A DNA stretch of 63,392 bases, counting the filler, from Acidimicrobiia bacterium (lineage in GTDB: Bacteria; Actinomycetota; Acidimicrobiia; Spongiisociales; JAENVV01): NCBI GenBank assembly GCA_041577335.1. It is 6 parts of 6 records of this genome, joined end to end, with 100 filler letters (N's around TTAATTAATTAA, not from the genome) between each part and the next. Parts side by side here need not be neighbours in the genome. Positions count along the whole stretch, not along the records: positions 46,073 to 56,114 come from JBFGJH010000087.1; 5 more parts are not named here. One strand, 5' to 3'. The position numbers were made by a program, and so were the translations under genes. The notes beneath the pieces were generated by a model. It worked only from the letters and a program-made list of their open reading frames with translations. It was not told the origin of the DNA and made no database searches. Within the stretch, counting starts at the first letter, position 1. Every line of letters starts with the position of its first letter. This document shows, piece by piece, positions 11,743 to 56,214 of the stretch.

Positions 11743-11842
11743 NNNNNNNNNNNNNNNNNNNNNNNNNNNNNNNNNNNNNNNNNNNNTTAATTAATTAANN
11801 NNNNNNNNNNNNNNNNNNNNNNNNNNNNNNNNNNNNNNNNNN
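11743..11842. other. Artificial contig spacer
   Basis: 100 nt of N containing TTAATTAATTAA (stops in all six frames). Confidence 0.99.
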
Positions 11843-23487: not shown

Positions 23488-23587
23488 NNNNNNNNNNNNN
23501 NNNNNNNNNNNNNNNNNNNNNNNNNNNNNNNTTAATTAATTAANNNNNNNNNNNNNNNNNNNNNNNNNNNNNNNNNNNNNNNNNNNN
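23488..23587. other. Artificial contig spacer
   Basis: N run with TTAATTAATTAA. Confidence 0.99.
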
Positions 23588-35109: not shown

Positions 35110-35209
35110 NNNNNNNNNNNNNNNNNNNNNNNNNNNNNNNNNNNNNNNNNNNNTTAATTAATTAANNNNNNNNNNNNNNNNNNNNNNNNNNNNNNNNNNN
35201 NNNNNNNNN
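35110..35209. other. Artificial contig spacer
   Basis: N run with TTAATTAATTAA. Confidence 0.99.
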
Positions 35210-45972: not shown

Positions 45973-46072
45973 NNNNNNNNNNNNNNNNNNNNNNNNNNNN
46001 NNNNNNNNNNNNNNNNTTAATTAATTAANNNNNNNNNNNNNNNNNNNNNNNNNNNNNNNNNNNNNNNNNNNN
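45973..46072. other. Artificial contig spacer
   Basis: N run with TTAATTAATTAA. Confidence 0.99.
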
Positions 46073-52302: not shown

Positions 52303-53631
52303 TCAGGGAGCGCCGGCAGCGGCCGACACAGCGGCTGCGACCGCACTGTGGACTGCGGTATCGAGCGGGTTGGGCAACAACTCTTCACCCGCCAGCTCGG
52401 CGAGACATTCCGCGGCAGCCAGCTTCATCGCGAACGAGATCGATGAGGAGCCAGACATCATCGCTCCTTTGAAGAGGCCCGGGTAGGCCAAGACGTTGTT
52501 CACGATGGAGCCGTCCGCGGCTACCGCCGCGCCGGCGGCAAGAGCCTCTCGCCTGTCGATCTCTGGAACGGGGTTGGAGAGCGCAAACACGATCGAGCCG
52601 GCCCGGACATCGGGGGCAGAAAGCAGACCGGCTCTGCCGCTCGTCATGATGAGCACATCCGAGCGTTTCACGACCTCACCAAAGCCTTCTCCACCTCCGA
52701 GAATCTCGAGGCGATCTGCATGATCATGGCCGACCGACGCCATCCGTGCCCCCGCATCGGCGACCGGATCGAAGGCCAGCACCCGCGCGAAGGGAAACCC
52801 CAACGCCAGCGACGCAATCGCCGAGCCGGCAGCTCCCAGACCTACTTGGCCCAGCACGAGCTCATCGAGCGAACGATTCGATTTCCTGGCCGCGGAGAGC
52901 ACGCCTGCCAACACCACGACGGCCGTTCCATGCTGGTCATCGTGCATGACTGGGATGTCGAGCGCTTCCTTGAGCTCGTCCTCGACTCGGTACACACCCG
53001 GAGAGGCAATATCCTCGAGGTGGATACCACCAAAACCCGGAGCAATCGCCTTGACCACTGCGATGATGTCAGCCGGTTCGTGCACGCCAAGCACGATCGG
53101 GACCGCGTTGATGCCTACCAACATCGAGTAGAACAGAGCCTTGCCTTCCATGACCGGGAGGGCCGCCTCTGGGCCGACATCTCCCAGGCCGAGGACACGG
53201 CTTCCGTCCGTCACCACGGCAACGGTGTTGCCTTTCCACGTGAGGTCGTTGGCACGCGAGACATCGTCGGCGATCGCTTGCGAAACACGCGCCACTCCCG
53301 GCGTGTAGACGGCCCGCACGTCACGAATCGTTCGGACCTCGACCGTTGGACGGACTTCGATCTTGCCGCCGTGGTGCACATGGAAGACGCCGTCGTGCTG
53401 AGAGATCACCTCGACGCCGTCGGTCGCAGCGAGAGCGGCGCGAATATCAGAAACCGACTCGGCGGTGGGAGCAATGACCGTCAGTTCGCGAACATTGAAC
53501 TCGTGCGTGGTGAGGACCGTTTCGATCCCTCCGATGTTGGCGCCGAATCGGGCGACATTCTCCAGCGCGCGGCCCAAAGTGCCGGGCACCTGAACCGTGC
53601 GAATACGAAAGACGATGTCGTGTTCCACCAT
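52303..53631 (-). CDS. Malic enzyme with N-terminal ACT domain
   Basis: VYTPGVA, VTDGSRVLGLG, PVMEGK, LEDI, HDDQHGT, GLGAAG and ALSNP. Confidence 0.88.
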   Translation of the reverse strand: MVEHDIVFRIRTVQVPGTLGRALENVARFGANIGGIETVLTTHEFNVRELTVIAPTAESVSDIRAALAATDGVEVISQHDGVFHVHHGGKIEVRPTVEVRTIRDVRAVYTPGVARVSQAIADDVSRANDLTWKGNTVAVVTDGSRVLGLGDVGPEAALPVMEGKALFYSMLVGINAVPIVLGVHEPADIIAVVKAIAPGFGGIHLEDIASPGVYRVEDELKEALDIPVMHDDQHGTAVVVLAGVLSAARKSNRSLDELVLGQVGLGAAGSAIASLALGFPFARVLAFDPVADAGARMASVGHDHADRLEILGGGEGFGEVVKRSDVLIMTSGRAGLLSAPDVRAGSIVFALSNPVPEIDRREALAAGAAVAADGSIVNNVLAYPGLFKGAMMSGSSSISFAMKLAAAECLAELAGEELLPNPLDTAVHSAVAAAVSAAAGAP

Positions 53632-53744: not shown

Positions 53745-53775
53745 AGAAACGGGCGCCTGAACGGCGCCCGTTTCT
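53745..53775 (-). terminator. Intrinsic terminator of the candidate small transcript
   Basis: AGAAACGGGCGCC-TGAAC-GGCGCCCGTTTCT, 13-bp stem. Confidence 0.75.
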
Positions 53776-53882
53776 GGTACATCAACACTTCTGGTGTGCC
53801 GCATGAGGACCAGCATGCGGGTCGATGAACTCGGTGGTCCGAGATGAAGTCGCCACCAAAGAGCGGCCACTTCGTGGCCTGC

Positions 53883-53927
53883 TCAGCGCTCGGCCACCTC
53901 CAGAGTCCTCAATAAATCAGAATGCAA
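53883..53927 (-). CDS. Putative 14-aa peptide MHSDLLRTLEVAER
   Basis: TTG start 9 nt after the GGAGG core of AGAAAGGAGGTGGTCC; TGA stop. Confidence 0.45.
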   Translation of the reverse strand: MHSDLLRTLEVAER

Positions 53928-54002
53928 GTCGGACCACCTCCTTTCTCTGGTGGCGCCAGTCTGCCACACGATGCCGAGAAACGGAACCAAAAAACGGAAT
54001 CG

Positions 54003-54989
54003 CTACAGATTCACGTTGGACATGATCGAGTCCTTGAGGGTTGCGAAACCTTCGGCGAAGCCCCCCATCGACCATCGCAGGAGAATGATGAAGCCGACGA
54101 AGGCGGCAATCGTGAGGATCCGCCTCGTCTGGTATGTCCTCACCTCGCTCCAGTCGGTCTCCGAGGATCCGACCGGCATGACTGTGGCAGCGCCCTGCGC
54201 CTCGGGATAGGGCGACGCCGCGACTGTCGAGGATGTTCCGCGCCCAATGACCTGAGTTGCCGAGAGAGGTGCGGCAACCTTCGTCTCTTCCAGATCGGGC
54301 ACGACGTCCGTGGAAAGGGCAGTACCGAGAAGGCGGGGCATTGCCGACGCGTCGACCGGCACCGCAACTATGACGTCGGATTCGTCGGTGTCTTCGTCGC
54401 GGTCCACGAATGCGTCGGCTTTGTCGCCCGTATCATCCGTTGCAGCATCTTCCCCAGCCCTTGCTTTTTCCAGTGGCTCCACCTCACGCGGCTCGGCGCT
54501 CGCGCGCTCGTCGGCCCAATCGTTGCCTCGCTCGGAATCGACCGGCATGGCCATGGCAATGCCCTCCGCCATCACGGTCGTCTGATCCACAACCGGCTCG
54601 ACCGGTTCGCTCGCCAAAGCAGACTCGAGAAGATCTGCGCCCTCGATGTCGGAGTCGGGCTCGGCATCCGCCTTGTCCGCCACCCCCGCAACGTTGGAAT
54701 CCACAGCATCCGGCTCCGCGCCCAAAGCAGACTCGAGAAGGTCTGCGCTCGCGTTGCCGGAGTCGGGCTCACCCTCCGCCTCGGCCACGTCCGCAACGTT
54801 GAACTCCAAAGCATCCGGTTCCACGCCCAACGCTGTGGCCAGCGCTTCGCGTATTTCGGGCGGAGGCGCGGTTGCACCTCGCTCCCACGAACGGATGGTG
54901 CTGGCTGACCGGCCCAGCATTTCGGCAAGACGCAGTTGCGTCATACCGAGCTGAGCGCGGCGCTCCTTGATGAGTTCGGCTAATTCCAT
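54003..54989 (-). CDS. XRE-family HTH protein with acidic repeat linker and C-terminal TM helix
   Basis: LIKERRAQLGMTQLRLAEMLGRSASTIRSWERG; two ~36-aa repeats; TM segment ILTIAAFVGFIILL. Confidence 0.75.
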   Translation of the reverse strand: MELAELIKERRAQLGMTQLRLAEMLGRSASTIRSWERGATAPPPEIREALATALGVEPDALEFNVADVAEAEGEPDSGNASADLLESALGAEPDAVDSNVAGVADKADAEPDSDIEGADLLESALASEPVEPVVDQTTVMAEGIAMAMPVDSERGNDWADERASAEPREVEPLEKARAGEDAATDDTGDKADAFVDRDEDTDESDVIVAVPVDASAMPRLLGTALSTDVVPDLEETKVAAPLSATQVIGRGTSSTVAASPYPEAQGAATVMPVGSSETDWSEVRTYQTRRILTIAAFVGFIILLRWSMGGFAEGFATLKDSIMSNVNL

Positions 54990-55173: not shown

Positions 55174-55268
55174 GGAGGCGAATGAGCGCCTGGTGGGCTC
55201 CCTGGTCTTCAAAACCAGTGGGGGATCGAAAGGTCCCCGGCGGGTTCGATTCCCGTCCGCCTCCGCCA
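55174..55268 (+). tRNA. selC: tRNA-Sec (anticodon UCA)
   Basis: GGAGGCG/CGCCTCC acceptor stem plus GCCA end, CTGGT-CTTCAAA-ACCAG anticodon arm, long variable arm GGGGATC-GAAA-GGTCCCC, GGTTCGATTCC T loop; 95 nt. Confidence 0.93.
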
Positions 55269-56114: not shown

Positions 56115-56214
56115 NNNNNNNNNNNNNNNNNNNNNNNNNNNNNNNNNNNNNNNNNNNNTTAATTAATTAANNNNNNNNNNNNNNNNNNNNNNNNNNNNNN
56201 NNNNNNNNNNNNNN
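56115..56214. other. Artificial contig spacer
   Basis: N run with TTAATTAATTAA. Confidence 0.99.

Follow-up and report, generated by a model that had tools for sequence, protein, structure and literature searches.

A putative mini-mRNA of the Ms_IGR-5/scr4389 lineage predicted to pair with the entire 16S rRNA 3′ tail

Why would a bacterial chromosome carry a small, apparently self-contained transcript that can pair with the whole free 3′ tail of 16S rRNA and then offers the ribosome a reading frame of only 14 codons? Such a locus was noticed on the minus strand of a 63,392-nt stretch of DNA from an Acidimicrobiia bacterium (hereafter the window). The original prediction entertained an unannotated ribosome-binding small RNA or micropeptide gene, a type I toxin-like mRNA, and an attenuator-like leader for the malic enzyme gene that follows. 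We used comparative sequence analysis to assess these readings. All features of the element described below lie on the minus strand.

A small transcription unit

The element is a unit of ~207 nt at positions 53951–53745 (contig C87) that is single-copy in the genome, and each part originally listed for it was found in the sequence where it had been placed. Its description as a self-contained minus-strand small RNA is supported. Of 61 genomes of the order searched by BLAST, 54 contain the element or a close homologue (a tally that includes the window's genome and the unpublished genomes G025 and G036).

Comparison among homologues places the predicted +1 nucleotide at an A at position 53951 and the transcript at 53745–53951. 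This column is A in 19 of 21 order-level loci, and the start of the Rfam model for Ms_IGR-5 maps to the same nucleotide. The first nucleotide of M. smegmatis IGR-5 is also A, according to its description (10.1101/2021.12.14.472595). Upstream lies an extended −10-like promoter element, TG..CAGACT (53958–53966), whose columns are conserved in 21 order-level loci, with an A in 18 and a T in 15 of them at −10 positions. No −35 consensus is apparent in the order-level loci, and a simple consensus scanner reports no sigma-70 promoter at the element; TTGAC/TAnnnT promoters can be seen by eye in distant homologues. At the other end, sequence and folding reveal a terminator-like stem of 13 bp with a 5-nt loop (53745–53775), whose U-tail is short and which a simple scanner does not flag as a terminator. 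Because neither promoter nor terminator was detected by consensus scanning, both transcript ends are assigned by comparison. Distant homologues carry terminators with U-tails after the core.

Folding of the region gives z = −4.24. Three metatranscriptome contig sets from the same study contain 0 records at 80% likeness, which is evidence neither for nor against expression.

Complementarity to the 16S rRNA tail

The segment that we call SD1 (53931–53946) is a 16-nt complement of the entire free 16S rRNA 3′ tail. The 16S 3′ end is absent from the window's own genome assembly, and the tail used here, GGAUCACCUCCUUUCU, is that of all five relatives queried (5/5), one of them from the same family. 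Against this tail all 16 nt pair, with one G-U, just as originally proposed. The predicted pairing energy is −27.8 kcal/mol, compared with −23.4 kcal/mol for the best anti-SD pairing among the upstream regions of 4210 long ORFs. Searching both strands of the 3.4-Mb genome finds no other site of this kind, and the chance expectation is 0.011 sites if at most one G-U is allowed and 0.89 if any number is allowed.

Variation in SD1 is one-sided. Among 48 distinct loci (of 57, three unpublished loci being excluded), which were collected by similarity and are thereby biased toward an intact SD1, 15 positions pair with the tail in all cases but one and the 16th pairs in 46 of 48. Changes are confined to A or G opposite U and C or U opposite G, a pattern that is expected from pairing to an unchanging partner. 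Conservation drops just beyond the last C of SD1, which we take to be where 16S helix 45 begins. Positions −4 to −1 lay outside the search pattern; of their 444 cells in 111 distinct pattern loci, all except one are paired. Perfect pairing alone is no explanation for the preference for G over A opposite a tail U (44 of 48). A few loci depart from the rule, with a 1-nt insertion in SD1 (L271–L274), a shortened SD1 (L266, L290 and L293) or a U-U mismatch with the tail (L254 and L255). A metagenome scan for SD1 sequences ending in GGUGUUCC gave ten matches without linked 16S sequence: L254 and L255, both with the full design, and eight chance matches.

The conserved G-U pairs function solely on the minus strand, and we therefore reject the alternative in which the plus strand would present anti-SD motifs. 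Ribosome binding, already suspected in the original prediction, is the activity best suggested by this conserved pairing.

A short reading frame

Downstream of SD1, an ORF (53883–53927) runs from a TTG start through 14 codons (MHSDLLRTLEVAER) to a TGA stop, and includes a TTA codon (host usage 0.35 per 1000). This predicted ORF proves real on comparison: among 178 distinct loci, an in-frame NTG lies 4–12 nt past GGAGGU in 166, with 9 and 46 in the other frames, and stop triplets number 0 in the ORF frame, against 18 and 89 in the others. Most of the 12 loci lacking NTG have ACG, ATA or ATT at that place. Weak starts dominate the 166 (TTG 78, ATG 53, GTG 21, CTG 14).

A stop occurs five codons after GAG GTG in 57/57 loci not selected on that feature, with all three stop codons in use. 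The same spacing holds in 28 of 29 further covariance-model matches inspected. In the phylum of G207 it is shared by 28 of 30 matches, the remaining two being chance coding matches. ORF length ranges from 11 to 19 codons, which led us to reject a constant spacing between the start codon and the structure. Stop usage itself shows local preferences. TAG is the main stop in two sets of loci (20 of 28 in L031–L060 and 24 of 28 in L196–L225); the window's genome favours TGA (933 of 1444 long ORFs), and stops are mixed among the elements of the order. A release-factor-1 link and a pairing constraint are candidate causes of the TAG preference.

A covarying helix and a pseudoknot

The final five codons, together with the first nucleotide (U) of the stop codon, make up the 5′ strand of a core helix, P1 (53885–53898). 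The E-V codons belong to a second Shine–Dalgarno sequence, SD2 (GGAGGUGG; 53894–53901), whose GAGGU always lies 7 nt from the last sense codon, an ordinary SD spacing. On the 3′ side, the GGCG strand of P1b and a conserved bulge rich in pyrimidines, ACUUCAU (distant members have AAUCCCAA), together occupy 53844–53854. They are followed by a box, CUCGGACCACC (53833–53843), which forms the 3′ strand of P1a by pairing with SD2 and closes the core helix across the bulge. The insert between the P1 strands varies widely in length among homologues and here holds a variable hairpin (53865–53879). A 3′ domain, P3 (53777–53830), contains an inner hairpin (53820–53799) whose GUCCU loop (53810–53806) is the 3′ strand of a pseudoknot; the 5′ strand, AGGAC (53905–53909), lies within the ORF.

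Covariation indicates that SD2 is locked in the core helix and that the ORF and the 3′ domain are connected by the pseudoknot. When 47 Actinomycetota loci were aligned on sequence only, 14 named pairs could form in 89.2% of cases versus 77.1% after shuffling, with 86 double changes and 28–36% for slid controls; across phyla, 10 pairs reach 91.1% versus 75.9%, again on a sequence-only alignment. Relatedness inflates these counts, but the changes nonetheless recur in separate lineages. Such alignments were preferred to PWM anchoring of the box, which placed 124 of 204 loci with some columns constrained by construction. For the pseudoknot, a word matching between the GGAC of the ORF and the GUCC loop is present in 57/57 loci, and in all six loci with CGAC, CGAU or AGAC the partner has changed and GUCC is absent. 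Minimal members outside Actinomycetota are without the GUCC loop.

The hairpins described originally are present in the window, although one of them, CTCGG/CCGAG, was rejected as a conserved pairing. A local hairpin is possible at 11 of the 29 loci from the order, but pairing of CTCGG with the last codons of the ORF is complete at 26 of the 29.

Within the window's order the box has a second potential partner. Its bulged base is A in 29/29 order-level loci; with this base the box mimics the 16S tail, is fully complementary to SD1 and can pair with SD1 as well as with SD2. Median energies for box:SD1 and box:SD2 are −20.0 versus −19.1 kcal/mol in 21 loci of the order, and −10.6 versus −14.7 kcal/mol in 26 other loci. 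The putative SD1:box switch is confined to this order, as the box pairs only weakly with SD1 elsewhere.

Several lineages show local variants of this architecture. L007 and L009 have a partial tandem duplication, in which a second copy of the box and of the beginning of the 3′ domain follows immediately 3′ of the element. In L196–L225, GUUGGG recurs by eye in the 3′ strand of the variable hairpin; after a ribosome has opened the 5′ strand, it could alternatively pair with the CCCAAC in the bulge. Loci L095, L109, L110 and L125 have long ORFs and no recognised box or bulge, and possibly represent a derived subtype.

Relationship to Ms_IGR-5 and scr4389

The best full-length Rfam match of the element is RF02471 (Ms_IGR-5), at 23.6 bits and E 0.012 over model positions 1–184 of 184. 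The score does not reach the gathering cut-off of 45 bits, and for this reason we file the element as a diverged homologue and not as an RF02471 member; under stricter filters, the RF02471 search gives no match in the window's genome. However, an HMM built only from the 21 loci that exceed the cut-off places the element as the top match in that genome (E 1.6e-7, the next being 0.064), and the reverse HMM recovers 13 of the 21 at E<1e-3. Across the phylum, RF02471 matches 44 of 151 genomes (a tally with four unpublished genomes), of which 22 score above the cut-off; none of the 14 controls is matched. RF02471 and BLAST land on the same loci in G022 and G035. A joint alignment reveals that the element and Ms_IGR-5 share SD1, the ORF, the SD2 helix, the bulge, the box and the GUCC-loop hairpin, in the same order along the full model and with reciprocal profile matches. 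The window's element differs in having 14 codons rather than 12, a separate terminator and a box that also matches SD1 in full. By these alignments, the element is a diverged homologue of the Ms_IGR-5 RNA family.

The S. coelicolor RNA candidate scr4389 belongs here too. Its probe and intergenic row in PMC2602773 contain by eye SD1, a 12-codon ATG ORF, SD2, the box and the GUCC loop, and on that comparison scr4389 is the same element. That study selected seemingly ORF-less candidates and does not mark scr4389 as confirmed; later confirmation of an RNA of that name is relayed in PMC8388888. Other papers report that M. smegmatis IGR-5 (= ncMSMEG15794c) is transcribed (PMC10454040; 10.1101/2021.12.14.472595), that it was captured as an NAD-capped RNA and called uncharacterised (10.1101/2021.12.14.472595), that the S. 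lividans homologue is validated by RNA-seq (PMC8079986) and that the S. avermitilis homologue is an sRNA unit (PMC8780764).

In the accessible literature, the family is treated as non-coding, actinobacterial and uncharacterised. The texts covered, with most subscription papers outside their scope, describe no ORF, 16S pairing, pseudoknot, wider range or function for it, and this negative is bounded by small-ORF lists in unsearchable supplements that may include the ORF. The original prediction of an unannotated RNA thus stands with respect to a stand-alone small RNA and falls with respect to novelty, as the element is a homologue of RF02471/scr4389. A match to a described family had been named as grounds for refutation; such a match exists in part, to a family (Ms_IGR-5/scr4389) whose function is not described in the literature found. 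The element is real and ancient, and is not new as a transcript family. What is new here is the identity of scr4389, the covariation of the pseudoknot and the order-specific box able to pair with either SD.

Other identities were examined by Rfam and ARAGORN. None of the 13 Rfam matches at E<=10 is 6S, Ms1 or 6C RNA, as the original prediction had asked to be checked, and none is an rRNA fragment, which was likewise rejected. A tmRNA is likewise absent from the 13, and ARAGORN reports only a tRNA-Sec in the window, so a tmRNA identity was rejected.

Distribution

A covariance model built from 42 diverse loci returns exactly one match per positive genome in every search, including one in the window's genome. 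Beyond that genome, the order has matches in 33 of 34 genomes, the class in 68 of 121 and the phylum in 71 of 151 (a tally with five unpublished genomes). Matches also occur in 43 of 51 genomes in the phylum of G211 and 16 of 121 in that of G210, where one of 15 inspected was spurious. The model includes members of the searched groups, which makes these matches partly non-independent, and the large searches scored just 20–59 candidates per genome. The model gave no match in 53 of the 121 class genomes and in 80 of the 151 phylum genomes, and this absence makes the element look dispensable in many lineages. Presence and absence go by whole families, and many of the listed genomes lacking a match are small (1–2.5 Mb).

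The design recurs outside Actinomycetota, as judged by pattern, Rfam and structural comparison. A strict pattern scan of named genomes gave at least 120 matches; among the matches listed, 107 are labelled Actinomycetota and 13 otherwise (eight Acidobacteriota and one each from Ignavibacteria, Zixiibacteriota, Leptospira, Syntrophobacter and an unclassified source), and the named sequences closest to the window's element are labelled Acidimicrobiia. The Rfam cut-off is passed by 2 of 13 scanned loci, L100 and L128, both labelled Acidobacteriota. An HMM from the window's order alone recovers just 2 of 35 non-actinobacterial loci at E<1e-3, and the cross-phylum link consequently relies on the L100 and L128 Rfam matches together with shared structure. 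In the phylum of G207, 40 of 208 genomes contain a match to a relaxed pattern. Of the 30 loci inspected there, 28 show the complete design, reduced to a minimal core of ~150 nt with a terminator behind it. Relaxed-pattern scans of the phyla of G208 and G209 gave no sign that the design is widespread in either: in the former, 7 of 121 genomes matched, three with the design and all alike; in the latter, 19 of 151 matched, controls matched at a similar level, and only G209 itself looked real.

One complete element, with ORF, box and GUCC loop, lies at L280:590-800 in a record labelled as an unverified bacteriophage (MT835602.1). It is the sole match in the mobile collections searched and may be host DNA in a mislabelled contig.

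A proposed ribosome-holding RNA and its alternatives

By comparison, the element has its own promoter and terminator, a conserved SD1 of 15–16 nt, a frame of translated type and a helix-locked SD2. On balance, we read it as a stand-alone chromosomal mini-mRNA of the Ms_IGR-5/scr4389 lineage for which the ribosome is the partner and the peptide a by-product. We are confident of its identity and of its translation; that ribosome holding is its function is a more tentative proposal, to which we give slightly less than even odds. The match to the 16S tail, together with a tiny ORF built into the RNA's own fold, argues for an action based on ribosomes rather than on a peptide.

In the proposed mechanism, a 30S subunit would dock very stably on SD1, and the ribosome would read into the fold, opening the pseudoknot and the helix. 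At the stop codon, SD2 would be freed from the box at a distance of 7 nt from the P-site codon, and could swap onto the 16S anti-SD, delaying release. The output would be ribosomes that are held or titrated, with the 16S 3′ end covered or protected. In the window's order, the freed box could also close SD1 behind the ribosome, creating a bistable switch. The conserved event is likely to fall at termination, given that the spacing from SD2 to the last codon is fixed and the distance from start to structure is variable. Several points count against this reading: the fixed SD2-to-stop distance could follow from the helix alone, GAGGUG could be kept by a protein ligand, the putative SD1:box switch is limited to one order, SD1 has exceptions and an unexplained preference for G, the loci were gathered by similarity, and the element looks dispensable in many lineages.

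If ribosome holding is true, the element would provide a way of storing ribosomes or controlling initiation by means of an RNA. A still bolder version is one that we regard as rather doubtful. It would make the element an ancient cross-phylum device that plays for the ribosome the part 6S RNA plays for RNA polymerase. As a decoy mRNA, it would cover the entire free 16S tail, be translated into its own fold and park the ribosome at the stop codon as SD2 swaps from an internal mimic of the 16S tail to the real tail, storing or protecting ribosomes when growth slows.

Known systems offer partial parallels. RNAs that are single-copy per genome across several phyla are, to our knowledge, few, and the known ones (tmRNA, 6S, SRP and RNase P) are core machinery. 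tmRNA is likewise conserved and single-copy, acts at the ribosome, and contains a pseudoknot and a short internal ORF; the present element, by contrast, has no tRNA-like domain according to ARAGORN and would initiate from its own SD. In Bacteroidia rpsU, an over-long SD serves as a ribosome-sensing device in bS21 autoregulation, but that extended SD is a cis element of a protein gene, whereas our element is a free RNA without a constant downstream gene. The closest working model is SprF1 of S. aureus, a small RNA that binds ribosomes through its purine-rich 5′ end and competes with mRNA loading, as described in PMC8938821; in our case, ribosome binding is predicted from 16S complementarity. 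SprF1 is also a type I antitoxin, and rancRNAs are defined in the same text as lacking coding potential, whereas the element has a conserved frame. A family catalogued as a non-coding actinobacterial sRNA nevertheless combines a conserved frame, full-length pairing with the 16S tail and a fixed SD-to-stop geometry.

The strongest alternative, which we nevertheless consider unlikely, is a translation-gated switch that senses the supply of ribosomes or initiation factors, with the unmasked bulge and box pairing with mRNAs, binding a protein or setting the RNA's own decay. The very strong SD and the predominance of weak starts would suit such a sensor, as would the two alternative folds of the window's element, which lie within 5 kcal/mol of each other (−97.3 versus −92.5). 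So would the heterologous Hfq pull-down by which IGR RNAs were originally obtained, according to a review (PMC7017587). The bulge points both ways: it is conserved across phyla and no internal pairing partner for it was found across them, but its sequence differs between lineages. Moreover, the box covaries with the ORF and not with an outside target.

An improbable alternative is that the micropeptide itself is the product, binding a ribosome or an enzyme and ending in xTxEVAxR. Frame, start and stop are strictly conserved, residues near the C terminus recur, and variable codons show a position-specific bias, with T at 299 of 592 third positions. However, the E-V codons GAG GTG are never varied synonymously in 57/57 loci that were not pattern-selected, the remaining conserved residues track base pairs, the GGAC word is retained while the frame shifts in L056 and L057, and the N-terminal half is free to vary in a peptide of 11–19 codons. 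These comparisons indicate that conservation applies to the reading frame and not to the peptide sequence, and that the RNA probably acts by engaging ribosomes rather than through its peptide.

An RNA toxin or type I toxin mRNA, acting by CreT-like tRNA sequestration or through a membrane peptide, is very improbable. The strong SD, mini-ORF and downstream structure do resemble CreT, which acts via the act of translation, and rare codons such as TTA and AGG occur in the ORFs. Yet CreT, as described in PMC8501985, depends on an efficient start followed by a tandem pair of rare codons and is linked to CRISPR-Cas, and none of these is conserved here: weak starts are common, conserved tandem rare codons after the start are absent, and no Cas family was seen among Pfam-identified neighbours. 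The type I toxin mRNA of the original prediction also fails on the peptides, which are unconserved and polar rather than hydrophobic (GRAVY median −0.36, maximum 0.92, n = 166). In addition, the element is single-copy and lineage-wide, the pattern search found 0 matches in viral contigs and 0 in plasmids, and no Pfam-identified neighbour is constant enough to serve as an antitoxin.

Genomic neighbours

The element is flanked by two minus-strand genes that are not part of it, an upstream gene for an HTH_3 protein (54003–54989) and a downstream malic enzyme gene (52303–53631) whose ATG lies ~113 nt past the terminator. Downstream genes were surveyed at 75 loci, 51 of which have a Pfam-identified gene within ~900 nt (hand-counted, and not necessarily the nearest gene). 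Orientation was taken from the Pfam calls, as the strand count of longest ORFs is unreliable in GC-rich DNA. The genes are convergent with the element in 31 of the 51 loci and co-oriented in 20, and belong to ~35 families. Upstream genes also vary (20 loci and the window). Least probable of all is the attenuator leader for the malic enzyme gene that was originally proposed: a short ORF, alternative folds and a terminator do precede a same-strand gene in the window's genome, but malic enzyme follows in 2/51 loci, within its own genus only, downstream genes vary and are mostly convergent, terminator stems vary freely among homologues, and no conserved antiterminator was seen.

The window is stitched from several contigs, and gene order across its N-run junctions is not real; these junctions appear as five paired 44-N runs around 12-nt spacers (11743–11842, 23488–23587, 35110–35209, 45973–46072 and 56115–56214). 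The product of the HTH_3 gene has a long acidic low-complexity middle and a hydrophobic C terminus, and this gene is likewise found upstream of the element in L008 and L011, from two other genomes of the order. A selenocysteine tRNA gene (55174–55264, plus strand; Rfam 81.3 bits, also called by ARAGORN) is located ~1.2 kb upstream of the element. In L110, and by eye in L095, both labelled Acidobacteriota, the element lies directly upstream of the gene for ribosomal protein bL31 on the same strand.
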